A stretch of 64,000 nucleotides of DNA from a virus. Below, piece by piece: positions 3 through 59,714 of the stretch. The stretch covers positions 5,205-69,204 of IMG/VR virus record IMGVR_UViG_3300046001_006524; one strand, written 5' to 3'. The position numbers and the translations under genes were made by a program. The notes under the pieces were generated by a model. It saw only the letters and a program-made list of their open reading frames with translations, did not search any database and had not been told where the DNA came from. How positions within the stretch are numbered: the first letter of the stretch is position 1; every line of letters starts with the position of its first letter.

Positions 3-473
3 TTTGATGGTGCTAAATTAACCACACTTTACAAATACCAAATAAAAGGTTATTGTTGGTTAGATAATAAGACTAAGGGTGAATTGTGCTATTGCTTATT
101 AAATAACCCCTTAAATCAAATCATAGAAGCTATTAAGAGTATTTATTACCGATTAGGTACGCCAGACGATGACAACGAAGATTTTATTGAAGCAAAGCAA
201 TCCGTAGAAAGGAATATGATATTCGACAAGCAAACTTTTTTGGATATGCAAGACAGAGATGGAAATTACCTAAATAGAAATTATGATTTTGAGAATAGGG
301 ATTGGAAATATGACATTCACCCGATAAATAGGGTTAAACGTTTTGACGTGGAATTATATCCTGGTGATATTAAAGATATAATATCAAGGGTACTATTATC
401 AAGAGAGTACTTAATGGAAAAAGAATTAGTTGAATTAAATAAAATAGCAGATTATGAACGAAGAAGAAATTGA
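3..473 (+). CDS. C-terminal part of a YqaJ/lambda-exonuclease-like recombination nuclease, 5' truncated by the window
   Basis: Frame is open from position 3 (FDGAKLTTLYKYQIKGYCWLDNKTKGELCYCL). The YxxQxxGYxWL motif is typical of this family, and an SSB-like gene lies downstream. Confidence 0.6.
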   Translation, partial: FDGAKLTTLYKYQIKGYCWLDNKTKGELCYCLLNNPLNQIIEAIKSIYYRLGTPDDDNEDFIEAKQSVERNMIFDKQTFLDMQDRDGNYLNRNYDFENRDWKYDIHPINRVKRFDVELYPGDIKDIISRVLLSREYLMEKELVELNKIADYERRRN

Positions 474-1170
474 AATTTGGAAAGATATTTTAGGATATGA
501 AGATAAGTATCAAGTGAGTAGTTTAGGGAGGGTTAAATCTTTAAATTTTAAAAACACTAAAACACAACGATTATTAAAACTTAATAGGGTAACAAAGGGT
601 TATTTATCTGTTCAGTTATGTAAAGATGGAAAGCAAAAATATTTTGAAGTACACCAGTTAGTCGCTATGGCATTTCTTAATCACATACGCTGTGGTCATA
701 GAATAATTGTTGACCATAAAGATAACGTTAGAGCGAATAATAGACTTGATAATCTACAATTATTAACTAATAGAGAGAATGTTGTAAAAGAAATTGACAG
801 AACAAAAACCACATCAAAATATACAGGAGTTACAATTTCTAAACCTTCAGGTAAATGGGTTTCAAAAACAACCGTAAACGGAAAAACAAAAGTCTTAGGG
901 TATTTTAATACTGAAGCTGAAGCGAGTGAGTATTATCAGAACGCTTTAATAGCTATTAATAACGGAACTGAAATTTGTGTAAAAGTGACAAGAAAGCCAT
1001 TAACAAGCGAATATAAAGGTGTGTGTTGGAGTAAGGAAGTAAAAAAATGGAAGTCAGAAATTCAATTTAAAGGAAATTTAAAGCGATTAGGATTTTTTAA
1101 CTTAGAGCGTGACGCTCATTTAGCATACCAAAAAGAATTAGAAGTATTAACATTAATAAATTCAAAATAA
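454..1170 (+). CDS. NUMOD4-HNH-AP2x2 homing endonuclease
   Basis: EIWKDILGYEDKYQVSSLGRVKS (NUMOD4), VDHKDNVRANNRLDNL (HNH), and two AP2-like repeats (SKYTGV..KW..LGYF / SEYKGV..KW..LGFF). Confidence 0.88.
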   Translation: MNEEEIEIWKDILGYEDKYQVSSLGRVKSLNFKNTKTQRLLKLNRVTKGYLSVQLCKDGKQKYFEVHQLVAMAFLNHIRCGHRIIVDHKDNVRANNRLDNLQLLTNRENVVKEIDRTKTTSKYTGVTISKPSGKWVSKTTVNGKTKVLGYFNTEAEASEYYQNALIAINNGTEICVKVTRKPLTSEYKGVCWSKEVKKWKSEIQFKGNLKRLGFFNLERDAHLAYQKELEVLTLINSK

Positions 1171-1553: not shown

Positions 1554-1928
1554 ATGAGTTTAGAAATTAAGGGAGTTTTAGAAAAGTTTTTACCTGTACA
1601 ATCTGGTGAAAAAAAAGACGGTAGCGGAACTTGGTCAAAACAGAGCTTTTTAGTACGCACAACAGAAGAATACAATAACCTTTATTGCCTTGAAGTTTTT
1701 GGCGATGATAAGGTTGCTAATTTAACGAAATTTCAAAAGGTAGGTGATGATATTAAAGTAATTTTTAATGTCAATACAAGTGAATGGCAAGGTAGATATT
1801 TTACTTCATTAAGTGTTTATAGAATTGAGCCTGCAAATAGCGGTACTGCATTGGATAATATGCCAAGTAAAACATCAGGTGCTACTTCGCAAAGTACTGA
1901 AGATGAACCAGATGACTTACCGTTTTGA
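1554..1928 (+). CDS. single-stranded DNA-binding protein (DUF3127-like, Bacteroidota type)
   Basis: OB-fold-like core (W.KQ.F..T.E.Y; EWQGRYFTSL) and an acidic tail ending DDLPF. Confidence 0.85.
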   Translation: MSLEIKGVLEKFLPVQSGEKKDGSGTWSKQSFLVRTTEEYNNLYCLEVFGDDKVANLTKFQKVGDDIKVIFNVNTSEWQGRYFTSLSVYRIEPANSGTALDNMPSKTSGATSQSTEDEPDDLPF

Positions 1929-1963
1929 TAACTAACTATAAATCAATACTTTAAGTACTACTT

Positions 1964-2215
1964 ATGAACATTTTAGTAATACACGAATTAGATTATTCCG
2001 ATGACAAAACATCTGTTATCGGAGTAGCTGATTCAGTCGAAAAAGCCAATAAATTAATAGACGAATATTATGGCGAATTTAAACAAATCTCTTATACTGA
2101 TATTCGAGATTCCAATTTGGAATATGACAAGGTAATTGATGTGTTTGACGTTGAATATGAGCGTACCTACACCTACAAATTAAGTTTAGAATGGTTTACC
2201 TTAAATGAATTATGA
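1964..2215 (+). CDS. hypothetical acidic phage protein
   Basis: 83-aa ORF with an ATGA overlap to the next ORF. Confidence 0.55.
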   Translation: MNILVIHELDYSDDKTSVIGVADSVEKANKLIDEYYGEFKQISYTDIRDSNLEYDKVIDVFDVEYERTYTYKLSLEWFTLNEL

Positions 2216-2406
2216 CCGTAGCTGATTTCCAATATTACGAGAATTACAAAGCACAATTGCGAAAATTTATATTTTCAGAGAAAAGCCTTAGAACCAAAGA
2301 TTACATTCGTTTAAACGATGAAATTAGAAATGTGGACTTGCATTTACAAAAAAGTCAAAAAATTTTTGAACAAATTAGTATAAATAATGTGTACTGTAAG
2401 TATTAA
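2212..2406 (+). CDS. hypothetical phage protein
   Basis: 64-aa ORF with coupled start/stop. Confidence 0.5.
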   Translation: MTVADFQYYENYKAQLRKFIFSEKSLRTKDYIRLNDEIRNVDLHLQKSQKIFEQISINNVYCKY

Positions 2407-2411
2407 TTGTT

Positions 2412-2419
2412 TATATTTG
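2412..2419 (+). promoter_or_regulatory. Bacteroidota sigma-ABfr -7 promoter element (TATATTTG) for the replication operon
   Basis: Exact TAnnTTTG match in the intergenic gap, overlapped by two palindromes at 2377-2395 and 2399-2417. Confidence 0.75.
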
Positions 2420-2420
2420 T

Positions 2421-2503
2421 AAGGTGAGTACAAGCACATTTAAGATTTTTTTTATAAAACCTACGATGAAGCTGTCTTGTACCAGTTGATTCGTGGGTTT
2501 TTT
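2421..2503 (+). ncRNA. putative cis-regulatory leader RNA (kissing loop plus terminator-like hairpin)
   Basis: GTG/CAC hairpin with loop GTACAAG (2428-2434). Second hairpin AAAACCTACGA/TCGTGGGTTTT with inner stem AGCTG/CAGTT and loop CTTGTAC (2476-2482), ending in a T-run. Confidence 0.6.
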
Positions 2504-2512
2504 CATATAATT

Positions 2513-3430
2513 ATGGCAAGACCAAATAAAATGGGATTAGAATATTATCAGTTTGATACAGATATATTCCTCGATAGAAAAGTAAGAAGATTAATAAAGA
2601 GTTTTAATTCAGACGGATTTTTAACATACATTTTTGTATTGACAGAAATTTACAGAGATAAAGGATTCTATATTTTATGGAATAATGACATTTCATTCGA
2701 TGTGTCAGACCAATTAAATATTCCTGAAAATTTAATAAACGAGATTATAAATTTTTGTTGCGAAATAAAACTTTTCAATAAAGAGATGCTAATTCATAAT
2801 GGAATTTTAACATCAAAATCTATTCAAGAAAGGTGGTCAAAAATATCAAAAGATGCAAAACGATCCATTTGTGATGTAAAACATATTAATCCAAAATATG
2901 AGTTAATTCAGGAAGAAACCCCGAAAGTTCAGGAAGAAACCCTAAAACCTACGGAAGAAACCCTTGAAGTACCCGTAATAATGCCACAAAGTATAGTAAA
3001 GGAAACAATAGTAAAGGAAAGTATAGAAGAAAATAATAATCCTTTACCTCCAAAAAAATTAGCAATTAAAAAAGTAAAAACTTTTTCAGAAGAAGTTTAT
3101 AACTGCCTTAATGAAATTTTAAATTATTTCCCAGAACACTTACACCCCGATACTAATGCAAAAAAAGATAATTGGCTAAACACTATTAGACTTTTAAACG
3201 AAACCGATTTAATACCATTTGAAACAATTATCCAAATTGTAAAATCCGCAAGAGAAGATGGTTTTTGGAGTACGGTTTTTTTAGCACTACCAAAATTAAG
3301 AACTAACGATAAAAACGGAATTAAATATATCGTGGTACTTAATGAAAAATTCAAGAACAATATTTTAAACGACAGAAAGAATGAACTTTTTGACGAAATA
3401 ATTAACCAAAACAGAAACAATGGATTCTAA
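2513..3430 (+). CDS. replication initiator, lambda-O-like (DUF4373/Lin1244-type N-terminal domain)
   Basis: MARPNKMGLEYYQFDTDIFLDRKVRRL..LTEIYRDKGFYI..GILTSKSIQERW, with iteron repeats in the linker. ATG 2513 is preferred over TTG 2477, which lies inside the leader hairpin. Confidence 0.8.
   Translation: MARPNKMGLEYYQFDTDIFLDRKVRRLIKSFNSDGFLTYIFVLTEIYRDKGFYILWNNDISFDVSDQLNIPENLINEIINFCCEIKLFNKEMLIHNGILTSKSIQERWSKISKDAKRSICDVKHINPKYELIQEETPKVQEETLKPTEETLEVPVIMPQSIVKETIVKESIEENNNPLPPKKLAIKKVKTFSEEVYNCLNEILNYFPEHLHPDTNAKKDNWLNTIRLLNETDLIPFETIIQIVKSAREDGFWSTVFLALPKLRTNDKNGIKYIVVLNEKFKNNILNDRKNELFDEIINQNRNNGF
2911..3020 (+). repeat. iterons / probable origin of replication inside the initiator gene
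   Basis: GGAAGAAACCC at 2911, 2932 and 2953 (21-bp period), then ATAGTAAAGGAAA at 2993 and 3008. Confidence 0.7.
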
Positions 3431-3749
3431 CAAACAAACAAACGAAGTTGCGATATTCAGACAACAACAAATTACTAAAAAGCAAGAGGATGATAAATTA
3501 AAAATTATCGCCATACAAACATCTTTGATTTTCGTAATGAAAAGATTAGACGACAAAACTCTTGATATTAAATTAACTACCGAAGCAATATTTGAAACTT
3601 TCTCAAGGATGCCATTAGAAAACATAAAATTAGCCATTAAAAACGGTTCAACAGGAAAATACGGTAGAACATATAAATTAACAACCCAAGAAGTTTGCTA
3701 TTGGATTCGGGAATTTATTGAAGAAGATGTAAAATCAAGGGAATTATGA
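3420..3749 (+). CDS. hypothetical replication-module protein (possible helicase loader)
   Basis: Overlaps the initiator stop. Function inferred from position only. Confidence 0.45.
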   Translation: MDSNKQTNEVAIFRQQQITKKQEDDKLKIIAIQTSLIFVMKRLDDKTLDIKLTTEAIFETFSRMPLENIKLAIKNGSTGKYGRTYKLTTQEVCYWIREFIEEDVKSREL

Positions 3750-5263: not shown

Positions 5264-5470
5264 ATGACACCAAAAGAAAAAGCTCACATTATAGTAGATA
5301 AATTTCACGATGATATTGATTTTAACTTAGTCGGTAGTCCATCGGTGAAAAGAATTGTAGCGAAAAAATGCGCCTTGATTTGCCTTGATATTATTTTGCA
5401 ACCATTTTTAATTGATTATGAAATAAGAAATCATTGGGAAGAAGTTAGAGAAGAAGTCGAAAAACTTTAA
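5264..5470 (+). CDS. small Bacteroidota-phage protein (MTPKEKA family), paralog of 53625-53846
   Basis: MTPKEKA..AKKCALI..HWEEVREEV matches MKAKEKA..ARACALI..YWQEVKQKL. Confidence 0.6.
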   Translation: MTPKEKAHIIVDKFHDDIDFNLVGSPSVKRIVAKKCALICLDIILQPFLIDYEIRNHWEEVREEVEKL

Positions 5471-5581
5471 TTTACAATTGTAAACTATGATATTCACATT
5501 AGACCAAATCGCCTTTATAATAGCACTTTCAGCGTGTGTTACAATTGTAATCTTACGCATTTTAAACGATTTTAATAACCA

Positions 5582-5779
5582 ATGATAATAAGAAAAAGAA
5601 ATAGCAAATACCTACTATGCGATATTTGGAAAATTGTAGATTGCTTTAAAAATAATCACGATAATTCTGATTCCGCCATAGCAAGAAAATTAGATTTACC
5701 AAAAACGCAAGTAACGGTTGTCACAAATAGATTCGTTGATGCGAAAATGAAAAATGTAAATGAAAAGGCGAGGGTTTAA
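5582..5779 (+). CDS. small HTH-like DNA-binding protein
   Basis: SDSAIARKLDLPKTQV HTH pattern. Confidence 0.5.
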   Translation: MIIRKRNSKYLLCDIWKIVDCFKNNHDNSDSAIARKLDLPKTQVTVVTNRFVDAKMKNVNEKARV

Positions 5780-5801: not shown

Positions 5802-8800
5802 TTATTGACCTCTTTTTGGTCTGTTATCTTGTTGCCCTCGTCTTTCTCTGCCTTGACCATTTGGATTCGCTGGAATTTTAACTTTTAAAGGTATGTACTC
5901 CACTCCTAACCTTGCTGCTTCTGCTCTGTAAAATAATTCATCATCTTTACTTTTCTCGGCATTTTCAGTTTTAGTTTTCGCTTTTTCCTCTTTGGTTTTT
6001 TCTTCTTTATATTCGGGATTACGTTTGCTCATTAAAATTTGCAATTCGTTTTTACTCATAGGTGTTTGACCGCCATAAACTCCCGTATTCCAACCAAACG
6101 CAGAAACAACAGTTAAGAATTGCGCTAATGCTCCTGGGTCTTCATTTTTGATTTCCTTTATAGCATCCCAATACATCGGTTTAATGTTTGCAATAGAATT
6201 TTCATCGTCATAATCTTTACCAAATGGTGTCATTCTAACCATTTCACCCGTTTCGGGGTTAAGTTTTTCTTTAGTTGAAAAATAGTTTACCAAACGAGAT
6301 GCTGAAGGTGCTAATTTATTTCTCCCAAATGAACTTACTAAATCTAATCTGTTTTGTTGCCCAAATCTTTTATCAGCCAAATCTTCTACTTTACCATCTT
6401 TTGTACTTTTCACTTGCTCTGTAATTAATCTTGCCATTAAAACTAAAACACCCATTTGACCGTGAAATAAATCCCAACGAATATTTCCAATTTTCAGTTT
6501 CATAAAATCTGAACTTCTTGGATCGGTTTCAATAGTTGCAACATCTTCATCGTCATCATCTTTTCCTGCTGCAAATTTTAAAGCGATTAGTGTTGCGCCA
6601 GTAATAGTTACAAATCGCATCATATTGTACATTGCCAATTTATTTGCTACTGATGTTTTTTTGAATTGTGCGCCATCGGTAGATGCAAAATGTAAATAAC
6701 CATAATAAATCGGATTCACTTGATTAATAACGGCAATAGCATTTTTAGCCGAGAAAAATATTACTGACAACGCTTGTGTATTTGTAGCAAGTGCTGTTGG
6801 TAAATTTGCCCTGCCCGACATTGTATTAATCGCATTTGCCAAAAGTTTATAATCTTGCAAATGGTCAATTTCATTTTTACCTTCCATTCTTAACATTTCC
6901 ACACCTCTTGCAAATTCTTCTATACGAAGTGTGTTCATATATAGCGTAGAACCTCTTTCTAATGCTCTGAATGGATTTATATTCTTCCATTGTTGCTTTG
7001 TACTCACTTTGTCTGTACCTATCTTTCCTAAGCCTGTTAATCGTTTAAATGGATTTAGGATTATATCGCCAAGTACAGATTTTTGAATGTTAGATAATTT
7101 TGTGCCTTTTTTAGATGCACCCGCTAAAGTAAATGGTAAATCCCAAGCAAAGTTCGCATAATCTCCCGTATAATTTTCTTCTCTTACATCAGATTTATAA
7201 TCAGGATTTGCTAAGGCTAATTTCGCTTTCATTGCTAAAGGATAATCAGGATGCGCTTTAATCATAGCAGCCATTTGATCTGATTTTTTTGCAGAACCAA
7301 TAGCTGTAAATAATTTACCCATAATTTTAGCCAACTCCTTAGGGTTTGTAAATTTCCTTGAAGTAGTTAAAATACCACCCTGAATTAAAACCGTAGAAAG
7401 CTCACCCGTTGCTCTTAAAATCCTTTCAATATTCCAAACCTCTAAAAGTCCGTCTAAGAATTTTCTTCCTAAACTTCTGTTTTTTAATTCGTCTTGATAT
7501 TTTTGAGCATCGAATATTTCTTGTTGCAATAATTTTTCTGCCCTTAATTTTAGCAATTCAGCATCTTCCCTTAATGGTCTTACAACTTTTTTAGCATATT
7601 CTTTAGCTTCAATCTTTCTTTTTAATTCTGTAATTTGATTTTTAACACGATTTTTAGTCGTTTTCATTCTTTGCGCTTCAACCAAACCTGCTTCAGCTCG
7701 CATATCATTCTTAATTTCAGTTAAGGCTTTCTTTTGCGCTCTTAATTCAGTAAGTTTATCAGATTGTTTTGCGTCTGGTCTTGTTTTAAACTCAACTTCA
7801 CCACTTGCAATTTCTTTTTGCAGTTTTTCAATAGATAATTCTAAAGATTTTTCTGCTCTTGCAATTAATTCTTCTTCCGTTAATTCAGGTTTACCAACCA
7901 ATTCATCTAAAATCTTTTTCTTAGCATCACGTATCGCTCTTAATTCTTTTGCTTCATCATCAAGTTTAACGGGATTTCTTTCAATTTTACGCTTTTCTCC
8001 ATTGGCAATTTGCTTATCTAAATCTTCAATTTGATTTTTAAGTTGTGTTTTTGCTCTGTCTAATGCAGATGCCCACTCTCTTTCTAAATCCGCTTCACTA
8101 AGTCCAATTTCTTTTATAAGTCTGTTTATTTCTTTACGCATTTCGCGCATTTGTTGCGTAGGTTTTGCACGTTGTAAACCACTTTTTAAAGGTCTAATTC
8201 CTTGTAAAGCATCTTCGTAAGCCGAAATTAATTTACCCACGATTTTAAGTCTTGACATTTCCGCTTGGACTTCATCTCTACTTGGATTTATTCTTTTCCC
8301 GTAACCCGTAATTGCATCACGAATATCTCTAATGTCAGCATCAGGAAATTCATCGGCAATATCTTCTTTAATTAAACCTGCAATAACGTCAATATCGGTT
8401 TCGCCTTGCTCTACATAATCTCTAAATAGTTGCGTAGGAATTACAATATTTCCTTTTTTGCCTATTTTTACGGTTGAAAGTTGAGTGACGCTAACGTCAG
8501 ATTTTCCTCCAGCTTCTTTAAATAATTGCGGTAAATGTTTTCTAACACCTTTACCTAACTCTTTTAATAACTGTTTTGAGAAATTATTAAAATCACCTTT
8601 AACACTTTTGAAGGCAAGTTGTAAATATCTTCTGAATTTTGGGTCGGCTAATAATGTAGCTACTCTTGTAATATCGTTAAAAACACCAAATAATTCCCTT
8701 CTTATTTGATTATATTCTGCCGTTTCTTCTTTTGTTAATGCCGATTTTGATTTTGAATCTTTTTTATTTGCCTTATCAATATCATCTTTAATATTTTTAA

Positions 8801-11800
8801 TCAACACAGCTTCTTCCGCTTTCTTTAAATTAACTTCCGCTTCCGTAATCAGTTTTTCAAGTTCTTTTATACGTTTGTCTGCTTCTGTTAGTTTAGCAAG
8901 TACTTCATCGCTTATTACACCGTTATTTAAAGCCTTGTGAGCATCTATTTGTGTTGTTAGGTTATATTTTAAGGATGACGAATTATAAACGTCTTGTAGG
9001 GCTGAAATAAACCTTCCCGCTTCAATAGTTTCTTGACCAAATTCATCTGTAATGTCGGCAATTATTTTAGCGTGGATAGCTTCTAATTCTTGTCTTTGCT
9101 CTTGGTTGGTATTTGCGTTAATTTCATCAACTAAAATACTGATAATTTTAGAGTAAACATACGCTTTTTCAGCACCTTTGATTTTATTATCTCTTACAGC
9201 TTGTAGTGCATTTTCTGAACCTACTTCATTTACAAAGTTTTCCGCATTTCTTTTAGCGATTTCTCTGTTTTCAATTCTGTAATCCAAACCATTTCTTTCA
9301 ATAGCATCAGTTATTTCTTTAGAATTTCCACCTTCAAACGCTCTATTTAATAATGATTTTTTTCCAGCCTTTCTCTGAAATTCATCTTTCTCAACTTTAG
9401 GCTCAACAACTTTAGGCGCAACTTTCGGTTTTTCACCATCTAATTTTGCTTTTACGTCATTAGGGTTTAATTCTATGCCGAATTTGTCTTTTATTTTAGC
9501 GAGAACTTGTTTAATAGCTTCATTAACGTCTATTCCTGCCGAAATTAGTTGTTTTACTTTTTCTGCAACAAAATCTATAAGTTGGTCTTGTGTATATCCT
9601 TGACCTTTTAAGTTTGGGTCGTTTACGCCAGGAAGTAAATCTTTTACATATTGAGCAGCTTTGTCAATTTTGGCGTTGGCTTTTTCTTTTTGGGTTGGTT
9701 TTACATCTTGCGGAACTACATTTTTTGCATCAAATACAAAATATTCATTTGCATCTTCATACTCACCTATAATTGAATCATATCCAGCTTCTTCGATAAT
9801 ACTTCGTGTTTTTTCTGTATTACCCACGAACATAAATGTAGATTCGTCTGTTTTTGGGTCAAAAATAGCCCTACTAATTGAACCAAATTTTCCGTCTTTT
9901 ATTTGACCGTCTATAATGTTTTTTACAAATTGCTCTGAAAGCCCATATCTTTCGTTAAGAATTTTAATTAATTTTTTGGCTTCAGGCGTATTTGGATCAA
10001 TAGTTCCCCTTATGTCGTAAGGCTTGCTAATTGTTAATTTAGCTTTTTTGACGATTGCCTTATGGTCATTTTTAACATCATCTTCTAAATTCTGTCTTGT
10101 TATTGAATATTTCATTGCAATACCTTTGCCGTCAGTAAATGAAATACCTTTACCAAATCTTGTATTTCCTGAATAACTTTCAGTACTATAACTCTCAAAG
10201 TCTTTACCCGTTCCGTGATAAACTTCTACATCGGCAGTTTCATCTTTACCCGTTCTCCAATTATATGTTGTTTCTTGGTATATTTTACTATTAGAAGTTG
10301 TTTCTTTAATTTGTAAAAACACATCTACTGCATTATCTTTGGTTAAATTCTCTTTTGCTTTAATATAATCATAACCTTTACTTGATAACAACTCTTGAAA
10401 TCCTTTATTTTCAAGCAAAGAGTGTATTCTAACTGTTTGCGATTTAGATAATGATTCATCCGTGATTGCAATCGCATCTCTTATTTCTTGTTGAGATACA
10501 CCAAACATTTCACCTAATTTATCTGAAATTTTAGCGTATTCCGTAACCAAAAATGGGAAATCAAAAACTTTTCCAGTAATGGTATGCTCTATAATTTCAC
10601 CGTCAGACTTCCCTTTTCCTTTAACGCTATTTGCAAATTTTCCCGCAAAATCTTTTGATGTAGTAAACCATTTTCCTGTTTGACCTTTTTGCTGACCTCT
10701 GAATACTTTTTGTCCTATGTTTTTATCTACACTTTCTGATTTTGTTTCCTTAGCATCCAATTCCTTAATAAATTCATCAAAAGATAATTTTCTATTTTTG
10801 GCAAATTCAATAATTTCAGCATCGGTCATTTGCTCTAAATGAGATACGGATTGCGTATGTATATCTTCATCGTCTGCCAAATTCATATTATGCAATTTTT
10901 CATAAAGAATTAAATCGTTTAAATCGCTCTCTGTCATTTTACCATAAGGCGTGTCGATTAAATTCTCTCCACTTTCATTTACTTGCTCATTCGCAACTTC
11001 ACTATTATTTCGGCTATTAAAATCTAATGCCATTGCTTTTGGCGTATTGAAATTATTTACAACATCAATTAATGCGTTTCTAATTTCTTCATCAGATATA
11101 TTTAGTTTTTTACCATATTGCTCCCAAAGTTTATGAACTATTTTGTTAAATGGCAATCCGCCTTTAGTATCTTTTCTAATATATTGTGAACGGGCAACAA
11201 CTTCACTTGTAGGGTAATTTTTAGACGCGATTACTTCTTTTAAGCCACTTGCAGTCATTCTGCCACCGCCTATAAAGAATTGTTGAACCCAATCAGTAGG
11301 TGTATTTGCTTCTACGGATAATGCACGTAACATTTCCGTATCTTTAATTTTACGCTTGTCTAATGGTGTTTTACCACGTTGTGAAGGTTTCTTTAATTGC
11401 TTTCCTTCTTCTGCTTGTTCAGGTATTCCACTATCTTTCTGTACGCTTCCTTCTTCTGGGCTAACGTTGCCTTTACTTGTGGTTTTTGTTTGCTTTCCAT
11501 TTTCTTTATTTGGTTTTTCTTGATTTGCTATAATATCATTAAATTCTTCATCTAAGAAATTTGCAATATCATCAAAGTTAATATTTTTTTCTTGATTTGC
11601 TATATTATTATCCTTTACTTCAACATCTCCTTTATCTGATTTAGGTTGGGGAGTTTCGGTAGGTTTTCCTATTGCGGATTCAACCGCTTTTACGAGTTCG
11701 GGATTTGAGCCGTCTTTTTTTGCTTTGTGGTAGGCTTCTGAAACAGTTTTGTAATTAGATTGTTTAAATAATTTATCGTCAGTTACCGCATATTTAAAAT

Positions 11801-14800
11801 CGGTTACACCTAAAGCTAATTGCGCCTTTACTCTATTATTTCCGTCTAATATTTTACCATTTTTATCAAGTAAAATTACATTATTAGGTAACTCACCTCC
11901 ATTTTTTAAAAACTCATAAATTTTATACGCACTTCCTATTTCTTTATCTATCTTTTCAGGACTATTTATATATCTATCAAAAGGTAATGCGTAGTCGCTT
12001 TGTTTTATATCTTTATAGTTTATTGTTCCCTTAATTGGCAATGTATTAATAGCAAAAGCAAAAGATTCGTTTTCGGGAATAATATCCTTCAAAGCCTTAG
12101 TTGTGGCATCAATTTCCTTTACTTCAACATCTCCTTTATCTGCAACAGGTTCAATGGCGGGTTGTATAATTTCGTCTTGCCCTTGTTGTATGTTTTGTTC
12201 AACGTTAGGTTGAATGTTTGCATTAGGTGTAATATCTCCTTGCGTTTGTTTTTCATTGGTGATTTCTTTTATAGGCGCAACTTGGTTTTTTTCGTTAGAT
12301 GCGTAATTTTTAAAACCTTCAATATCTTTTTTTGAACCTAAAATGTGAATCTGATTAGATTCAAAAGCAACCAACTCTACTGTCTTTCCGTTTGCGTCTT
12401 TTGCTATTACCCCATCATAACCTTCGGCTTTTAGTTTGTTTAATTGTTTCGTGTTTATGGATTCATAATTAAACTTGAAAGGATTACTCATTGTTGATTT
12501 ATGAGCATTAACTATTTTCGGATTTTTTAAATCTGTAACAACACTCATTGTTACTGGATTTTTATAGTTTCTTTCACCATGTGAATCTGCATATTCTTTA
12601 AAAGCAGTAAAATAGCTACCCCAGTAATTTAATCCAATAGATGGGATGCTAACGCCTTTTCTATGAGTGTCAAATTCATTATACATTTCTCCACCGCTAT
12701 GGTAAAGTATTTCTTTGTTTTTATTATTAGGGAAAATGGTTTCTAAATAATCCGCATATTGTTCTTTTGTTCCCGTTTCCTGCAATTCAATATTATTTTC
12801 ATGAACATACTTTACTTCCGAATCATTTTTATATGTTCCTTTTTCAATAGGCGAAATTTCCTCATTTGCCTTATTATCTACCTTTTCGGGTATAATTTCA
12901 GCAGTTTCAATAGTTTTTGTACCCTCTTGGGTATTGTTTGGTGTTTCTTCAACTTTAGGGTTTACAATTTCATTTTTTTGAGCTTCTAATGCAGTAAACT
13001 TTTGCTCTAAATCTTTTTCTAAAACCTTTTTAACTTCTGGTGATATTTTATCATCATTTACCAATTCAATAAACGATTGGTTTACTTTTTTCATTTCGCC
13101 ATCAACTTCAAGTACATTTTTAACTTGTTCGTCTGATAAATTATCAACTTTGGCTATTTCCGCTTTTTGTATCTCTGCGGTTTCGCCATCTACTTGCTCT
13201 ATCTTCGCTTGTAACGCATTTTTAATACTTTCTGAATCAACTACGCCTAATTCCTTTTTTAAGGCTTCTGACATCGCTGAATTTTCATTTATTTTTTTTG
13301 TAGTTTCCGCACTTCTTGTTTTGGTTGAAACATATCCTTTTACACCACTCATTGAACCTCCGACAAAACCTCCAATAATACTTGCATCAATAGAGTTTTT
13401 TAGGATTTGCAACATAGAAACATCTTTTCCTGCAACTAATTTATCCGATAAGTCTTGTGTAATTGATGTTAATCCCTCTGAACCACCCTCAATTCCAATA
13501 TCTTTTAATATGGTTTTTACTAAATTTTCTGAAATTTCTTTTGCAACTTCCTTATTTCCTAATGCCATTTTTTTAATAGGCTCGAAAATTCCTTGTGTAT
13601 ATTTTTCAAAAAATGCTTCCGAAGTACCGTTTATTAATGAATTTGCTACGGTTTTTAAACCCAAATCCGCACCTTCTCTTTCTTGCGATTCTTGTTTTTG
13701 TGATGCCGTACTTGCACCTATTGTAGCTAAACCTCCTGGCGATAATGCTAAAACCATAGACGGCAAAGATTCAACCGCGCCTTGTATAACTCTATAAGAC
13801 GCTCGTTTAAAATCACCATTGCTAATATCATCAACAATGTTACCCTCGTATTGTATGGTTTTTTCAGAAAGTTTTTCCGCTTTGTCTGTAAGAAAGTTTT
13901 GTGCTTCTGCTGAATTTTGTATTCTGCTTATTTGTTCAGGACTTCCGCTTGCTAATAATATTTCTCTTGCTTCTTTTGGTAATTTATTTAATTCGGCTAA
14001 AGATTCTTTGTCAAGTACTATTGATGCAGTTAATTTATTAATAAAATTATCTATTCCAGCAACTCCAGCTAATGCAGTAAGTCCACCGCTTTTAAATCTG
14101 TTTGTTAAATCTCTTGTAACGCTAATTTCCTCTTTATGCTTTTGAATTTTAATAGGCAAATCGCCTTGTTTATCCACAGAAAAAGGCTCTGTAAAATCAG
14201 GTGTTTTAGTTTGTGTTTTTAGGTCGTAAGATTCGGGTTTTCGCATTTTAAATATTGCGTACTCACCCGTTCCGTCAAGATATTCATTAGTTCTGTCAGA
14301 ATATTTTTCAGTATAATCACTATGTGTAAATACCCATTTTCCTTTAGCGTCTTTACTCCATTCGCCACCTTGCGTTTCTTTACTACTATATTTACTCTCA
14401 TCACTAAAAGTAGGGTGTCCTGGTTGTTTGTATTTATCTATGAAATGAGCATCTGTGGATTCGCCTAATATTTCATCACGCCATTTATCTTCATTTTTCC
14501 AAAATCCCCTATAATCATAAAATTGACCTTCTGAATCAGGATTTTCACTAAGATTTTTATATTTACTAACCTTTGAATACCATTCTTTAAATTTAGATTC
14601 TTCGTCTGAATTTAATTTAGTCTTGTAATCGTTAGTTTTTAGTTTTGGAATATCATCTTTCTTCTCAAAATCAAAAGGCTCACTAAAAGATTTTTTCTGC
14701 GTTTTTAAGTCGTAAGATTCTTGTGTACCCGAAGAAATAGGTTGCGTAATTGGTTTCGTAGGCGATTCCACATTTTGCTCTTGAACAGTAGGTTGTGATT

Positions 14801-14951
14801 CTTCGTATTGCTTTTGTAAAGAAGGCTCTGATATGGTTTTTTTTTTTACATTCTTATCAGATTCATACATAGTAATTAGTGACCTTAAATCATTGTCACT
14901 TGCGCCACTTGCTTTAGCATTGTTTAAAAGTGCTTTTAATTCTTCATCCAT
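5802..14951 (-). CDS. giant polyvalent internal virion / DNA-ejection protein with three ADP-ribosyltransferase-like (ART-PolyVal) domains, a ParB/Srx-like domain and long coiled coils
   Basis: 3049 aa, last of three ejection-type genes. ART-like motifs LYHSG..GSYFT..GYDGVI..ELVAFESNQI, VFRGQ..GKWFTT..GYDYI and VYHGT..GISFT..GYDSII..EYFVFD. ParB-like ILDGNNR. Confidence 0.75.
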   Translation of the reverse strand: MDEELKALLNNAKASGASDNDLRSLITMYESDKNVKKKTISEPSLQKQYEESQPTVQEQNVESPTKPITQPISSGTQESYDLKTQKKSFSEPFDFEKKDDIPKLKTNDYKTKLNSDEESKFKEWYSKVSKYKNLSENPDSEGQFYDYRGFWKNEDKWRDEILGESTDAHFIDKYKQPGHPTFSDESKYSSKETQGGEWSKDAKGKWVFTHSDYTEKYSDRTNEYLDGTGEYAIFKMRKPESYDLKTQTKTPDFTEPFSVDKQGDLPIKIQKHKEEISVTRDLTNRFKSGGLTALAGVAGIDNFINKLTASIVLDKESLAELNKLPKEAREILLASGSPEQISRIQNSAEAQNFLTDKAEKLSEKTIQYEGNIVDDISNGDFKRASYRVIQGAVESLPSMVLALSPGGLATIGASTASQKQESQEREGADLGLKTVANSLINGTSEAFFEKYTQGIFEPIKKMALGNKEVAKEISENLVKTILKDIGIEGGSEGLTSITQDLSDKLVAGKDVSMLQILKNSIDASIIGGFVGGSMSGVKGYVSTKTRSAETTKKINENSAMSEALKKELGVVDSESIKNALQAKIEQVDGETAEIQKAEIAKVDNLSDEQVKNVLEVDGEMKKVNQSFIELVNDDKISPEVKKVLEKDLEQKFTALEAQKNEIVNPKVEETPNNTQEGTKTIETAEIIPEKVDNKANEEISPIEKGTYKNDSEVKYVHENNIELQETGTKEQYADYLETIFPNNKNKEILYHSGGEMYNEFDTHRKGVSIPSIGLNYWGSYFTAFKEYADSHGERNYKNPVTMSVVTDLKNPKIVNAHKSTMSNPFKFNYESINTKQLNKLKAEGYDGVIAKDANGKTVELVAFESNQIHILGSKKDIEGFKNYASNEKNQVAPIKEITNEKQTQGDITPNANIQPNVEQNIQQGQDEIIQPAIEPVADKGDVEVKEIDATTKALKDIIPENESFAFAINTLPIKGTINYKDIKQSDYALPFDRYINSPEKIDKEIGSAYKIYEFLKNGGELPNNVILLDKNGKILDGNNRVKAQLALGVTDFKYAVTDDKLFKQSNYKTVSEAYHKAKKDGSNPELVKAVESAIGKPTETPQPKSDKGDVEVKDNNIANQEKNINFDDIANFLDEEFNDIIANQEKPNKENGKQTKTTSKGNVSPEEGSVQKDSGIPEQAEEGKQLKKPSQRGKTPLDKRKIKDTEMLRALSVEANTPTDWVQQFFIGGGRMTASGLKEVIASKNYPTSEVVARSQYIRKDTKGGLPFNKIVHKLWEQYGKKLNISDEEIRNALIDVVNNFNTPKAMALDFNSRNNSEVANEQVNESGENLIDTPYGKMTESDLNDLILYEKLHNMNLADDEDIHTQSVSHLEQMTDAEIIEFAKNRKLSFDEFIKELDAKETKSESVDKNIGQKVFRGQQKGQTGKWFTTSKDFAGKFANSVKGKGKSDGEIIEHTITGKVFDFPFLVTEYAKISDKLGEMFGVSQQEIRDAIAITDESLSKSQTVRIHSLLENKGFQELLSSKGYDYIKAKENLTKDNAVDVFLQIKETTSNSKIYQETTYNWRTGKDETADVEVYHGTGKDFESYSTESYSGNTRFGKGISFTDGKGIAMKYSITRQNLEDDVKNDHKAIVKKAKLTISKPYDIRGTIDPNTPEAKKLIKILNERYGLSEQFVKNIIDGQIKDGKFGSISRAIFDPKTDESTFMFVGNTEKTRSIIEEAGYDSIIGEYEDANEYFVFDAKNVVPQDVKPTQKEKANAKIDKAAQYVKDLLPGVNDPNLKGQGYTQDQLIDFVAEKVKQLISAGIDVNEAIKQVLAKIKDKFGIELNPNDVKAKLDGEKPKVAPKVVEPKVEKDEFQRKAGKKSLLNRAFEGGNSKEITDAIERNGLDYRIENREIAKRNAENFVNEVGSENALQAVRDNKIKGAEKAYVYSKIISILVDEINANTNQEQRQELEAIHAKIIADITDEFGQETIEAGRFISALQDVYNSSSLKYNLTTQIDAHKALNNGVISDEVLAKLTEADKRIKELEKLITEAEVNLKKAEEAVLIKNIKDDIDKANKKDSKSKSALTKEETAEYNQIRRELFGVFNDITRVATLLADPKFRRYLQLAFKSVKGDFNNFSKQLLKELGKGVRKHLPQLFKEAGGKSDVSVTQLSTVKIGKKGNIVIPTQLFRDYVEQGETDIDVIAGLIKEDIADEFPDADIRDIRDAITGYGKRINPSRDEVQAEMSRLKIVGKLISAYEDALQGIRPLKSGLQRAKPTQQMREMRKEINRLIKEIGLSEADLEREWASALDRAKTQLKNQIEDLDKQIANGEKRKIERNPVKLDDEAKELRAIRDAKKKILDELVGKPELTEEELIARAEKSLELSIEKLQKEIASGEVEFKTRPDAKQSDKLTELRAQKKALTEIKNDMRAEAGLVEAQRMKTTKNRVKNQITELKRKIEAKEYAKKVVRPLREDAELLKLRAEKLLQQEIFDAQKYQDELKNRSLGRKFLDGLLEVWNIERILRATGELSTVLIQGGILTTSRKFTNPKELAKIMGKLFTAIGSAKKSDQMAAMIKAHPDYPLAMKAKLALANPDYKSDVREENYTGDYANFAWDLPFTLAGASKKGTKLSNIQKSVLGDIILNPFKRLTGLGKIGTDKVSTKQQWKNINPFRALERGSTLYMNTLRIEEFARGVEMLRMEGKNEIDHLQDYKLLANAINTMSGRANLPTALATNTQALSVIFFSAKNAIAVINQVNPIYYGYLHFASTDGAQFKKTSVANKLAMYNMMRFVTITGATLIALKFAAGKDDDDEDVATIETDPRSSDFMKLKIGNIRWDLFHGQMGVLVLMARLITEQVKSTKDGKVEDLADKRFGQQNRLDLVSSFGRNKLAPSASRLVNYFSTKEKLNPETGEMVRMTPFGKDYDDENSIANIKPMYWDAIKEIKNEDPGALAQFLTVVSAFGWNTGVYGGQTPMSKNELQILMSKRNPEYKEEKTKEEKAKTKTENAEKSKDDELFYRAEAARLGVEYIPLKVKIPANPNGQGRERRGQQDNRPKRGQ
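11611..12142. repeat. 28-bp perfect direct repeat flanking the ParB-like domain
   Basis: TCCTTTACTTCAACATCTCCTTTATCTG at 11611-11638 and 12115-12142, 504 bp apart; encodes DKGDVEVK twice. Confidence 0.9.
14212..14720. repeat. imperfect direct repeat (ESYDLKTQ) flanking an N-terminal domain of the giant protein
   Basis: TGTGTTTTTAGGTCGTAAGATTC (14212-14234) and TGCGTTTTTAAGTCGTAAGATTC (14698-14720), 486 bp apart. Confidence 0.8.
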
Positions 14952-17968: not shown

Positions 17969-18120
17969 AATATGAAAAAATATCTTGATAAATGGCTAAA
18001 CCAAACCAGAGAAGAAGAAATTATAGAAATGTCTAATGCGCTTAATGGAAAGCCTACGTATTCTGATAGTGAGATTGCTATGGGTATGGCTTTTTTGTGT
18101 AAAACTAAATATTATAAACT

Positions 18121-18326: not shown

Positions 18327-21300
18327 TTACAAATAACTCTTGACAATATTTGTACTACAACCGTACAGTTCATTAGCCGTATTACTATCATCAATTAAAG
18401 TAACATTCAGATAATAACCCCTCGCAGAAGTACCATTAACCCTACTATTGCTTTTACTGTATGCAAAAAGATTAATTATAGGCGAGATTACATCAGCATC
18501 AATCGTTATTTGATTGTTATTGATACCCATAATTTCGCCTAATAGTTCCTTGTTATTTCCGTTTACTTGATACAATTTATCGCCAACACTTGTTATATTT
18601 GCAACACTTGCGAAGGTCAAAATATTTGCATTTGCGCTAATAATATTTCCTATTCCTTGTGTAACACCTCTTAAATCGCTTTCATTTTCATTTCCTTTTA
18701 TAGATGCAAAATACCTACTTTCTCTTTTTGTAAATTCAGATTTTGGAATTGTGCCGTTTGTGTAATTTGTGTTAAAAACTATTCTCCATGCAAAATCACT
18801 TTCTAAAATAATATTCTTAAAAATACTGTCCTCAAAATTGGTATCATTAAAAATAGTTTGTACGGATGAACTAAATTGTTGTCCGTAAAATTCATTGTAG
18901 CCGTTTAAGGTTTCATTATGAATATAAGTATTTCCGTCTTTAACCGTATGTAGCCTATTATTAACTCTTACAATAGCATCAGGCAAATAAGAATGAAAAG
19001 AAGTCCAACCTTTAACTTTTTCGTCAAAAGTAAGGGTATAACCACCTAAACTTATAATATATTGACCGAAATATGGGTCGTAACCCCCTAAAATATTGCC
19101 TAAATTTGTTTTAAATATTTCTCTGAACCAAGAACGCATACCAAAATTAGAAATAATCTCGATTCCGCTTTGTCCTTTTCTTAATACTACCCCTCTTTTT
19201 TGATCTACCCAATAAATATTATTTCCGTAAACCGCTAAACTTTCGGGATTTTTACTAATACCAAATTCGCCAACGTAAGGTTTTATACCACCAAATACAT
19301 CATCACTTTTACCTAAATTGCTTGTGCCGTCATTATTGTATAAAATGGATTTGCGATATAATAATTGGTGTACTTTATCTTCTTGAAATATATCTAAATC
19401 ATCGTTCCAGCTAACAATTTTCTGAATTGCGCCATATTTATCATCTAAGTCATAAAAGTTCATTAGAGATAGGTTAAATTCATTCAAACCATTGTAATTT
19501 GTACTTTGTTCGTATGGCTGACTGTAAGTTATAGATGCAATCCGTTTATTTTGTCTGTAATTTTCTATTGGTGTTGAAGGTCTTGTATCAAAATTCAAAG
19601 TTTTGGCATTAAAACCATCTTTAATTTTGTAAGATTCGTGTCCGTTACCCCAACTGTAACAATTAAAAATATCTAAATTTAAAATAGCTGAAACTCCCGT
19701 ACTTTGATTTGTATCGCCAACATCATAGCCTAAATGGTTTCTGTTTGCGTCAATACCATAAGTTTTCCCTATTTCATAGAATATATCCGAATTGTAATCT
19801 TTTGGTTTGGTTTCAAAAATTAAACGTGTAGTTCCGTCACTTTGAAATAGTGTTGTTTTTGCGCTCATTTTCACTATTTGATTGAATGAAATATTGGTTG
19901 GTTGCGCCATTTGTGATTGCGTAACCATCGTCATATAACCATCAGTATTGTAATCTAAATAGTTTGCGTTACCATCATTATCTTGCCTAATTACACCTCT
20001 CATAAAAAAGATATGCGACAAATCAAATGTTGGTATTTCATCTACTATTTTTTGACCTATATTTTCGCCAAAATACCACTCTTGTATGTTTGCGTATTTT
20101 CCGCCTGAAATAAATGGCAACTCAAAATAAGTGTTACCAGCACCATATTCGTCATAAGTAAGCACTATGTTTGCGCCAATCTCAATAATTTCATCTTCAA
20201 CTGTATGGCTTGATTCCGTCATTGTAACATATTTATCCCCAACGGTTCTGAAAAAACCATAGGCGTATAAACCATTACTTACTAATTTAGACCTGACATA
20301 GATACTCCATTCATCTGTTAATGCGTGTCCTGTATTTGATGCAAAAGTAACAGTTATTCCATCACTCAATGTTTGTGGTGTACCAACCGTTATGGCTATT
20401 TCAGTACTAAAACTACCGCCATCAGCGTTCCATCTGAATTTATTGAATGTAGTTACACCATCTCCCAAACTTGAAATTTGCACCATAAAGTGTTTATCAC
20501 TATTTTCCCAAGTTGTAACATAATCACCTCCCGAAACCATATCGTCTAAAAGACTATCGCCATAATAATATGCCTTACCTATATTTTCCGCACTATTGGT
20601 TAAACAGTCGTTGTATCTGTCTTTTGAGTTGTGGTAAGTCGCTAATTCAAAATTCTCAAAATCATCTACGTCTAATCTGAAATTTTTAGGTTTTATTTTA
20701 AAGTATAACCCTGCTCTTTCCACGATTTTATCAGTTACATTCTCTGTTTGCAAAAAGTTTTTATCTTGGTATTTTACTTCCAAAACCTTTGTTGTAACTA
20801 AATCATTAGTAATATTCTGACTATCACTTTTTACAACCAAAAAATCACCTTCCTTAACTTTATCTTTGTCAGCACCCTCTAATTTAACCCATCTGTAACT
20901 TCCGTCTTGATAAAATAATGTAGGCGCAATAGTTTCATAATCGCCCTTAGTCTGTTTAATAAAAAAACGATAGTATTTGGCAAATTCAGGAGCTTTATTA
21001 GCTATGTTTACCTTTATTTTATTTTGCTGAATACTATCGCTATTGGGTATGTAAATGGTGTTATTTTCGCTTGTTAAAGGTGTGGTTAATCTGCCGTAGT
21101 CATCTAAATAAGAAATACCAACTTCATAATCCCGATTGGATTTTAAACTTCTTGTAGCCACACCACTTACAATAGCTGTACTTACTTTTTCAACGGTTAA
21201 ATCAATATTTATTTTTGCATTTAGCGAATCAGCAATATTGTAGTTTTCAGTATAATTTCCATACACTAACATATTGTCGATAATATCTTGTGATTGTGCG

Positions 21301-22277
21301 TTTAAAGGAACGTTGTCGTAAATCCTAAATAATTCTTTTTCGGCTAAAACTTTGTAAATTTTATTATTGGTAAATGAAACGGAAACAAATACAGGTACGG
21401 TAGGTGTTGAATCTGCCCAAATCTGTTCTGCCTTATCATAATTTTCAATCAAATACAAGGCGTTACTTCCACTTTCTTTAAATACAATCTGAACATCAGT
21501 AATAAGCGAACTTCCCGTATTTACAGTTACATCAACCTTATTATAGGTGTTAATCATACTTTCATTTATTCCCGTAGAATAATCGTAATCAAATGCTTTT
21601 GGGTCAAATGCGTAGGTAGAAAATGGCGAACAAGCACTAAATTCCCCATCTAAATATTTGTATCGGTAACTGAATGAAACAAACTTTTCTTCAATATTAT
21701 TTTCTTCGTCTGGCGTATTTCCTAAAACGATAGTAGGCGCATCCAAAGGTGGTTTTTTAATGACTAAAATCATTTCTTCGGTAAAATCACTCGCCAAATA
21801 ATTTTGTTTTCCACGTTCTATATTAACGCATTTCGGTTGGGTGTTTCCGTCACTAAAAAATAATAAGCGATTGCCGTTATCAGAATCAATTACAATGTTA
21901 ATTCCTGTAATCAAAAAATCTTCGCTAAAATTTAAGACGTTTAATGCGCCAACTCGTGTGTCTTTTGCTACAAAAACAGTAGTTTGGGTATTTACATCGT
22001 ACTCAACAATATAACAACCTAAGTCAGATTTTAATAATAGGTATATTTTTTCTTCAAATTCATCAGAAGTACTGCTAATAGTTTTTACATTATCACCAAT
22101 AGTCAATTCAGAAACAATCATATTCGACAAACTTTTTTCAATCGCACCAACATTTGAGCTTTCGCTATTTGCCAATCTGATATTTAAAGCATCTCTGTAT
22201 TGTCCGTCTTGCAATAATCTGTCGTCTAAATCTTTATCCATTTTAGACGCTAAAAAAGTCCTTCTGCTAATTGCCAT
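18327..22277 (-). CDS. tail stabilisation/nozzle protein (P22 gp10-like beta-propeller)
   Basis: 1316 aa. N-terminal MDKDLDDRLLQDGQYRDALNI, and GEFGISKNPES..YWVDQKRG..GGYDP..WTSFHSY, typical of Bacteroidota podophage stabilisers. Confidence 0.75.
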   Translation of the reverse strand: MAISRRTFLASKMDKDLDDRLLQDGQYRDALNIRLANSESSNVGAIEKSLSNMIVSELTIGDNVKTISSTSDEFEEKIYLLLKSDLGCYIVEYDVNTQTTVFVAKDTRVGALNVLNFSEDFLITGINIVIDSDNGNRLLFFSDGNTQPKCVNIERGKQNYLASDFTEEMILVIKKPPLDAPTIVLGNTPDEENNIEEKFVSFSYRYKYLDGEFSACSPFSTYAFDPKAFDYDYSTGINESMINTYNKVDVTVNTGSSLITDVQIVFKESGSNALYLIENYDKAEQIWADSTPTVPVFVSVSFTNNKIYKVLAEKELFRIYDNVPLNAQSQDIIDNMLVYGNYTENYNIADSLNAKINIDLTVEKVSTAIVSGVATRSLKSNRDYEVGISYLDDYGRLTTPLTSENNTIYIPNSDSIQQNKIKVNIANKAPEFAKYYRFFIKQTKGDYETIAPTLFYQDGSYRWVKLEGADKDKVKEGDFLVVKSDSQNITNDLVTTKVLEVKYQDKNFLQTENVTDKIVERAGLYFKIKPKNFRLDVDDFENFELATYHNSKDRYNDCLTNSAENIGKAYYYGDSLLDDMVSGGDYVTTWENSDKHFMVQISSLGDGVTTFNKFRWNADGGSFSTEIAITVGTPQTLSDGITVTFASNTGHALTDEWSIYVRSKLVSNGLYAYGFFRTVGDKYVTMTESSHTVEDEIIEIGANIVLTYDEYGAGNTYFELPFISGGKYANIQEWYFGENIGQKIVDEIPTFDLSHIFFMRGVIRQDNDGNANYLDYNTDGYMTMVTQSQMAQPTNISFNQIVKMSAKTTLFQSDGTTRLIFETKPKDYNSDIFYEIGKTYGIDANRNHLGYDVGDTNQSTGVSAILNLDIFNCYSWGNGHESYKIKDGFNAKTLNFDTRPSTPIENYRQNKRIASITYSQPYEQSTNYNGLNEFNLSLMNFYDLDDKYGAIQKIVSWNDDLDIFQEDKVHQLLYRKSILYNNDGTSNLGKSDDVFGGIKPYVGEFGISKNPESLAVYGNNIYWVDQKRGVVLRKGQSGIEIISNFGMRSWFREIFKTNLGNILGGYDPYFGQYIISLGGYTLTFDEKVKGWTSFHSYLPDAIVRVNNRLHTVKDGNTYIHNETLNGYNEFYGQQFSSSVQTIFNDTNFEDSIFKNIILESDFAWRIVFNTNYTNGTIPKSEFTKRESRYFASIKGNENESDLRGVTQGIGNIISANANILTFASVANITSVGDKLYQVNGNNKELLGEIMGINNNQITIDADVISPIINLFAYSKSNSRVNGTSARGYYLNVTLIDDSNTANELYGCSTNIVKSYL

Positions 22278-47725: not shown

Positions 47726-47762
47726 CAAAGATATATAAATTAATACGAATTAATTATATTTG
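47726..47762. promoter_or_regulatory. back-to-back Bacteroidota promoters
   Basis: TATCTTTG on (-) at 47726-47733 and TATATTTG on (+) at 47755-47762, with palindromes at 47742-47760 and 47764-47782. Confidence 0.75.
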
Positions 47763-55081: not shown

Positions 55082-55089
55082 CAAATATA
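55082..55089 (-). promoter_or_regulatory. promoter -7 element (TATATTTG) for the methyltransferase operon
   Basis: TAnnTTTG on (-), inside palindrome 55075-55093, with further palindromes at 55062-55080 and 55097-55115. Confidence 0.7.
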
Positions 55090-55182
55090 TATTTTTAATA
55101 CGAATAATCTGTACTGCCGTTTATTCTATTTTTCTATCATATTTTAGTTTAGTATCAATTTATTCTATTGTTGGTATTAGTT

Positions 55183-59671: not shown

Positions 59672-59677
59672 AAAAGC

Positions 59678-59714
59678 AATAGGCGGGAATCAAAAAGAAT
59701 GAAACCCGCCTATT
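59678..59714 (+). other. intergenic hairpin (weak terminator or processing site)
   Basis: AATAGGCGGG-N17-CCCGCCTATT, without a long U-tract. Confidence 0.55.

Follow-up and report, generated by a model that had tools for sequence, protein, structure and literature searches.

The gap immediately upstream of the replication initiator gene of a freshwater phage contains a stable two-tier hairpin followed by a run of six Ts. Located where modules meet, this element is probably a leaky Rho-independent terminator or attenuator, and it probably also gives rise to a leader RNA of ~78 nt. An earlier reading made from the DNA letters alone (the sequence-only reading) had proposed an attenuator-like leader in this gap, with a contact between two loops acting as a switch for termination or translation. 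Most of the proposed layout held: there is a promoter-like box, a leader of ~80 nt, a terminator-type hairpin with a U-run, and then the ATG of the initiator gene. The loop-loop switch was not supported. The complementary boxes that would form it are found no more often than expected by chance, and an ordinary leaky terminator is therefore the most likely explanation.

The DNA is from a crAss-like phage. We analyzed a stretch of 64,000 nucleotides (the window), comprising bases 5205-69204 of a 69,204-bp IMG/VR virus record that has direct terminal repeats of 127 bp, a completeness rating of 100%, and a G+C content of 31.6%. The whole stretch was contained in only one sequencing run, a lake-water metagenome that may be the origin of the record. 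The match of a minus-strand ORF of 1316 aa (18327-22277) to the Crassvirus muzzle protein (PF25731, E = 1.4e-22) places the phage among the crAss-like podoviruses. In a larger ORF (5802-14951, minus strand, 3049 aa), residues 1576-1743 match the ART-PolyVal ADP-ribosyltransferase domain (E = 6e-12). The motifs DFDxD and DYDxD, the mark of the crAss virion RNA polymerase, were found neither in this ORF nor in five other large ORFs (the six largest were examined).

Three lines point to Bacteroidota as the type of host. A Shine-Dalgarno core precedes only 1 of the 82 called genes. Upstream of these same genes there is an excess of A at -3 (0.73) and between -11 and -13 (0.62-0.68), a pattern typical of Bacteroidota. 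Lastly, among cellular homologues of the initiator, the nearest come from metagenome-assembled genomes of Paludibacteraceae (45%) and Alistipes (43%), and its named protein relatives are from Bacteroidia and Paenimyroides. The fit to a host of this kind counts in favor of a leaky terminator served by a Bacteroidota-type promoter box.

The hairpin is in one of the few sizeable gaps in a block of genes (Table 1). After the gene for the DUF3127 protein there are two small ORFs on the plus strand, the last of which stops at 2406. The gap from there to the initiator gene (2406-2513) is 106 nt, one of four in the gene block that are longer than 30 nt, and the genes 3' of the initiator continue without large gaps to 5779. 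The initiator matches Lin1244_N/DUF4373 (E = 1.4e-24) and PHROG 2562, 'replication initiation protein' (E = 2e-35), and the MARPN at its start is common to its homologues.

Table 1. Features of the gap upstream of the replication initiator gene and of the neighboring genes (window coordinates).
Feature	Coordinates	Strand	Remarks
HNH endonuclease gene	454-1170	+	upstream of initiator
DUF3127 SSB-like protein gene	1554-1928	+	upstream of initiator
Last ORF of upstream block	2212-2406	+	64 aa; no family; TAA at 2404-2406
Promoter-like site	2399-2419	+	-7 box TATATTTG at 2412-2419; GTATTAA at 2399-2405; putative promoter
Weak 3-bp hairpin	2424-2437	+	GUG/CAC around GTACAAG; predicted fold
Two-tier intrinsic-terminator-type hairpin	2456-2503	+	predicted fold; putative terminator
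Mini-ORF MKLSCTS	2466-2489	+	seven codons, then stop; wholly within the hairpin
Replication initiator gene	2513-3430	+	305 aa; Lin1244_N/DUF4373 N-terminal domain; start MARPN

Other repeats were found in the same block. The initiator gene contains three tandem 21-nt repeats (2907-2970, core GGAAGAAACCC) in the linker between its two domains, where they encode a repeated QEET/TEET stretch that its homologues also carry. These repeats are candidate origin iterons; by analogy, the lambda ori sits inside gene O. A perfect 12-nt palindrome, TTACAATTGTAA, is present in two copies 67 nt apart (5472-5483 and 5539-5550) in the intergenic gap 5470-5582, and by their sequence the pair look like operators.

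The promoter-like box fits the consensus of Bacteroidota. The letters at 2412-2419 agree with the -7 consensus of the Bacteroidota sigma-A, TAnnTTTG. The consensus is taken from PMC7366714. Promoters of this kind also have a weaker TTTG at -33, an element that PMC7366714 reports as weak or absent in Flavobacterium; here, TTTG is absent from the region 19-23 nt upstream of the box. What the sequence-only reading took for a promoter ahead of the leader is a promoter-like box of the Bacteroidota type: no sigma-70-type site was found on the plus strand between 2380 and 2420, and a sigma-70-like site on the minus strand (2406-2377) is directed away from the leader. TAnnTTTG is not enriched in the genome overall (132 matches versus 122 +/- 12 expected). 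Its density in intergenic DNA was 2.3-fold higher (1.87 versus 0.82 per kb per strand; 32 matches in 8,564 nt of intergenic sequence), and it occurs in the correct orientation 21-65 nt ahead of many genes. The 2412 box is 94 nt from the ATG of the initiator, longer than the spacing typical of this genome. Promoters of this type begin their transcripts ~5-8 nt after the box, and a transcript from the 2412 box should therefore start at ~2424-2428. Such a start coincides with the 5' arm of the weak 3-bp hairpin or falls within it, and this hairpin probably lies at the extreme 5' end of the RNA.

The box is part of a longer motif, GTATTAA-N5/6-TAT(A/C)TTTG, that we found at 2399-2419 (plus strand), ~47726-47750 (minus), and ~55082-55106 (minus). 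The latter two are 25-37 nt ahead of minus-strand genes, those ending at 47689 and 55057. Related sites are at 47755 (plus) and 39775 (minus). The motif often has TTC before it, and its reverse complement, TTAATACGAA, is found at divergent sites. Judged by its letters, it may correspond to the tripartite middle promoter known from crAss-like phages, whose motifs are given in Supplementary file 1 of 10.1101/2020.03.07.982082.

The large hairpin has the anatomy of a Rho-independent terminator, a stable stem containing G+C with a U-run directly behind it, and only one element of this kind in the genome is stronger. Its lower stem has 11 bp (2456-2466 with 2491-2501, one G-U pair) and is joined through a 3x3 internal loop to an upper stem of 5 bp (2470-2474 with 2483-2487, one G-U pair) that is closed by an 8-nt apical loop, UCUUGUAC, at 2475-2482. 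The six Ts occupy 2498-2503, with 9 nt between the last of them and the initiator ATG at 2513. All of this (two stems of 11 and 5 bp with G-U pairs, six Ts, 9 nt to the ATG) is as the sequence-only reading had described. The predicted folding energy was -18.9 kcal/mol (z = -4.92), and none of 200 shuffled sequences folded as well. Pair probabilities were 0.63-1.0, and at least 0.89 for every pair except the outermost A-U, whether the RNA began at 2424 or at 2300. When the whole genome (69,204 bp) was searched for hairpins directly next to runs of at least five Ts, this element scored -18.8 kcal/mol and only one other (59670-59714, minus strand, -20.3) was stronger; between 1 and 5800 of the window, on either strand, nothing else scored below -12.2 kcal/mol. 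A simple consensus scan missed the hairpin because its loop rule (3-8 nt, single stem) is unsuited to a two-tier structure.

The hairpin is also more elaborate than other terminators of this phage. The other clean ones in the genome have stems of 8-10 bp and loops of 4-6 nt. In the one ahead of the initiator, the AAAA on the 5' side is predicted to take up four of the six Us in base pairs. This pairing, together with the internal loop and the 8-nt apical loop, suggests that the element may do more than terminate. A second terminator-like hairpin (18048-18096, -12.4 kcal/mol, T6) is 25 nt before the co-directional ATG at 18121, with no TAnnTTTG box in between; this phage may tend to place leaky terminators immediately before its genes.

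The position of the hairpin implies that termination would be incomplete. It starts 50 nt past the stop of the upstream gene and ~37 nt past the 2412 box. Since only 9 nt lie between the T-run and the ATG, there is no room for another promoter, and the initiator and the genes up to 5779 would be expressed only from RNA that reads through the hairpin. We infer from this that the stop is a leaky one, which is the anatomy of an attenuator. The hairpin would end part of the transcripts arriving from the upstream genes and would also shorten part of those initiated from the 2412 box, leaving a leader RNA of ~78 nt; together, these two effects would set a low or timed expression of the initiator. 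The order promoter, terminator, gene is unusual and, with the long distance from the box to the ATG, counts against a leaky terminator.

The leader was not conserved in homologues of the initiator gene. A blastn search with 1900-3500 against 50,697 phage records had no match. Relatives of the initiator were found at 2 loci in IMG/VR with the single protein as query (29% identity), at 49 with the alignment A3 as query (33-50%), at 11 loci in metagenome contigs (43-60%), and at 5 in genome contigs (38-45%); the ORF at 2212-2406 had no relatives in IMG/VR. We took the 150 nt upstream of the gene at 29 of the 60 loci from IMG/VR and metagenomes (49 and 11, respectively); dropping rows with identical match statistics (duplicates) and two loci (L057 and L060) with no upstream DNA left 26 distinct leaders. 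None of the 26 could be aligned to the leader in the window, and a TAnnTTTG box was present in only 1. Terminator-like hairpins with an energy of -8 kcal/mol or better were found in none of them. In one leader (L020) there is a long hairpin with a T5 run 6 nt behind it, which did not pass as terminator-like. A search with a DNA pattern specific to the leader gave two matches, one in an unrelated phage with the same layout (L064) and one in coding DNA (L065). Further leader patterns gave a single unrelated, G+C-rich match in one IMG/VR search (L066), and none in another or in genome contigs. The unrelated phage, also from IMG/VR, has within 6735-6830 a gene stop, the box TATATTTGTAA, 57 nt, a 7-bp hairpin with a T-run, 14 nt, and an ATG; the search pattern had demanded the box and the T-run, but no hairpin. 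A tblastn search with the ORFs of this phage against the genome studied here had no match, and the two share no protein.

Close relatives of the leader itself came only from contigs of four freshwater and runoff metagenome runs (X2-X5), roughly 90-95% identical to the window, and in these the leader was separable from the initiator gene. Contigs ~90% identical span 2000-2420 and 2496-3100, and those over the region of the ORF at 2212-2406 are from all four runs. Three contigs cover the leader: X2 record 4 (2392-2507, 6 differences), X3 record 14 (2392-2503, 6 differences), and X4 record 22 (2351-2503, 8 differences). Others leave the window sequence just past the promoter box, at 2419 (X5), 2420 (X4), and 2422 (X3 and X4), or rejoin it at 2496 (X2) and 2501 (X3), and one X3 contig connects 2420 to 2496 through a stretch that does not match. 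In X2 and X3, different letters precede the initiator gene. Conversely, behind 2507 the X2 contig with the leader (712 nt) has a different sequence that starts with another ATG, and the X3 contig (449 nt) runs well beyond 2503 with no match to the window. Based on these break points, we conclude that the promoter, the leader with its terminator, and the initiator gene are three separately exchangeable modules, and that the leader is not a dedicated partner of the initiator gene. That it precedes different downstream sequences is in keeping with a generic transcription signal placed where modules meet.

The initiator gene itself appears to be mosaic. In a metagenomic initiator of 289 aa (P0002), the C-terminal half is near-identical to the protein in the window from NNNPLPPKK onward and the N-terminal DNA-binding domain is quite different, which, judged from the two protein sequences, is domain shuffling within the gene. 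This agrees with the mosaic break points in the related contigs.

The number of differences is compatible with some extra constraint on the leader. In the X2 contigs there were 6 differences in 116 nt of leader versus 11 in 109 and 33 in 358 nt of the coding flanks. By these counts the leader appears at least as conserved as the coding flanks, a difference that by our estimate is not significant.

We considered several alternatives to a leaky terminator. One is that the leader is a stand-alone small RNA of ~78 nt whose 5' segment or apical loop acts in trans, with read-through into the initiator being secondary. A promoter box, a length of ~78 nt, and a strong terminator are the canonical anatomy of intergenic and 5'-UTR-derived small RNAs of Bacteroides (PMC7366714), and the module precedes different downstream sequences in related contigs. 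We scanned the single-stranded parts of the leader against the start regions of the called genes. The segment 2424-2445 was predicted to pair with 55966-55986, in the leader of the ORF at 55998 (17 pairs including G-U, -17.7 kcal/mol), and the best energies of shuffled probes were -12.9 +/- 1.9 kcal/mol (n = 100). However, the best of the 100 shuffled probes reached -20.5, indicating that the predicted target is not significant, and conservation was not found beyond a few near-identical contigs. We consider a dedicated trans-acting RNA unlikely.

It is also improbable that the hairpin is stable but has no regulatory role, being either a relic of recombination at the module junction or a plain stabilizer of the mRNA. 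Its location exactly between two mosaic break points is what such a relic would predict; the z score of the fold, the U-run, the intergenic position, and the 95% identity in relatives all argue against it.

We think it quite unlikely that the leader is controlled by pairing between the two 7-nt boxes, as the sequence-only reading had proposed. In that model GUACAAG pairs with CUUGUAC in the apical loop, as a kissing loop or an H-type pseudoknot, and tunes termination or translation of the initiator. A variant has the pairing affect RNAs from the local promoter, in which the first box is free, differently from read-through RNAs, in which it is partly sequestered. The boxes are indeed there: GTACAAG is at 2428-2434 and its exact complement, CTTGTAC, is at 2476-2482, 41 nt further on. 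In RNA beginning at 2424 both are predicted to be single-stranded (unpaired probability at least 0.93 for the first box and at least 0.98 for the loop box); in RNA beginning at 2300 the first two bases of the first box are paired (0.01-0.07 unpaired), a modeled difference that is compatible with a function. The predicted energy of the duplex was -6.7 kcal/mol, and a pseudoknot would be sterically conceivable. The pairing cannot be lengthened on either side, even if G-U pairs are allowed, and the box motif is not enriched (no further copies within 15 kb; 8 in 64 kb versus 5.3 expected).

The match is rare locally and ordinary in the genome as a whole. In 200,000 shuffles of the 35-nt upstream segment and in 200,000 random genomic 35-mers, a 7-nt Watson-Crick complement of the 8-nt loop was found with a probability of 0.0037 and 0.0067, respectively, and this low local chance counts against a coincidence. 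Among 779 simple hairpins on both strands (stems of at least 5 bp with at least two G-C pairs, loops of 7-10 nt), however, only 10 had a loop complement within 60 nt (3 upstream, 7 downstream), versus ~24 expected from ten Markov-shuffled genomes (12.4 +/- 4.0 upstream and 12.0 +/- 4.6 downstream). There is no enrichment, and about ten such pairs are thus met by chance in scanning the window. The 7-nt match is most likely a coincidence.

The small hairpin that was thought to expose the first box is also within chance. Its 3-bp stem exists, but the predicted energy was only -1.5 kcal/mol (z = -0.93), and 31 of 200 shuffled sequences folded as well. When 101 nt were folded, some of the first box was paired in the minimum-energy structure, and the centroid lacks the first hairpin. 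Of the two stable hairpins needed for a kissing loop, the second is present and the first is not. Moreover, with a transcript start at 2424-2428, the first box would be the free 5' end of the RNA and not the loop of a hairpin. A single copy of the first hairpin could be compared by eye: the 30 loose letters of the X5 contig look like a diverged leader in which the GUG/CAC flanks and CACATT-AAGAT are kept and the box letters differ. This seeming retention of the flanks is in favor of the model; the contig stops before the terminator.

No switch follows from this anatomy because pairing with the loop does not compete with the terminator stem. When the box-box helix was forced as a nested structure, the energy was -13.9 kcal/mol versus -20.9 for the terminator fold; at a cost of 7 kcal/mol, pairing of the boxes is not an antiterminator. 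Nothing upstream of the hairpin was found to complement the lower stem on either of its arms, and we found neither an alternative antiterminator nor a defined sensing partner such as an attenuator has. The sequence-only reading had proposed an Rfam search with Infernal as a check. At gathering score there were no matches in the whole 64-kb window, and a permissive search of 2350-2560 gave six matches to unrelated families, all with E >= 0.9 and far below gathering scores; no family, including the c4/CI kind, can be assigned. With a first hairpin and a complementarity that are within chance, no competition between stems, and a leader that is not conserved with the gene, we see no support for a 7-bp loop-loop pseudoknot as a switch.

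A related idea, very unlikely in our view, is that the terminator discriminates the origin of the transcript: a free 5' GUACAAG would dock into the loop as an H-type pseudoknot and change termination, and RNAs reading through from upstream would behave differently. If true, the leader would be a self-contained, promoter-specific attenuator and a mobile cassette among freshwater crAss-like phages. If the boxes were found to co-vary, this would be a new, compact kind of riboregulator: an intrinsic terminator modulated in cis by contact of a loop with the RNA 5' end, in a phylum whose translation does not use Shine-Dalgarno sequences.

An element acting in DNA, such as an origin-associated inverted repeat or a protein-binding site by the AT-rich stretch, is highly improbable: the inverted repeat does lie beside T8/A-rich DNA (2446-2459) directly upstream of the initiator gene, but the tandem repeats inside the gene are the better candidate for an origin, the G-U pairs in both stems favor an RNA structure, and the 41 nt between half-sites is atypical for a dimeric binder. 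Ribosome-mediated attenuation, in which translation of the mini-ORF melts the hairpin so that RNA polymerase reads through, is the least probable of all. The mini-ORF covers the upper half of the hairpin, and its ATG at 2466 has an A at -3 and is A-rich from -7 to -10, as in the genes of this phage. Against this, an AT-rich leader of 90 nt is expected to contain one ATG by chance (our estimate), the lower stem overlaps with the start codon, and there is no alternative antiterminator pairing. The mini-ORF is probably a chance ORF.

If the element is an ordinary leaky terminator, the site is a transcription boundary in an uncultured Bacteroidota phage, at which the early and replication block is split into two units and expression of the initiator would be kept low. 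This is useful for annotation and unsurprising.

The leader can be compared to several known systems. In phages P1 and P7 (c4) and P4 (CI), a processed, tRNA-like antisense RNA has boxes that match at least two target boxes, and acts by a block of translation or by termination. The sequence-only reading had drawn on P1 c4 and P4 CI, and the likeness is in the short complementary boxes in a leader before a phage control or replication operon. We rejected the C4 antisense RNA family, since there was no Rfam match and there is a single 7-nt box pair instead of at least two targets in the leader.

In the plasmids pT181, pIP501, and pAMbeta1, attenuation of the rep genes is driven by a countertranscript, and loop-loop contacts are part of the mechanism. 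In systems of the pT181 type, the leader must carry an antisense promoter and be able to fold in mutually exclusive ways. As in these plasmids, an intrinsic terminator is in the leader immediately before a replication initiator gene; unlike them, the phage leader has no competing fold. We rejected this type of antisense attenuation because no minus-strand TAnnTTTG was found between 1530 and 2845, the positions of the nearest such boxes on that strand. Leader-peptide attenuators of the trp type likewise have a short ORF that overlaps the terminator in the leader, but here there is no antiterminator alternative, no run of regulatory codons, and no conservation.

The closest likeness is to the leaky terminators of phage operons and the short RNAs of Bacteroides. 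For Bacteroides thetaiotaomicron, Ryan et al. 2020 (PMC7366714) describes intrinsic terminators and short RNAs, 5'-UTR-derived or intra-operonic, that end there. The element ahead of the initiator differs in being two-tier, with an 8-nt loop and 9 nt to the ATG, and in that its termination and its short RNA are predictions; it shares with them a stem containing G+C, a U-run, a co-directional intergenic gap, a promoter-like box upstream, and genes downstream that would need read-through.
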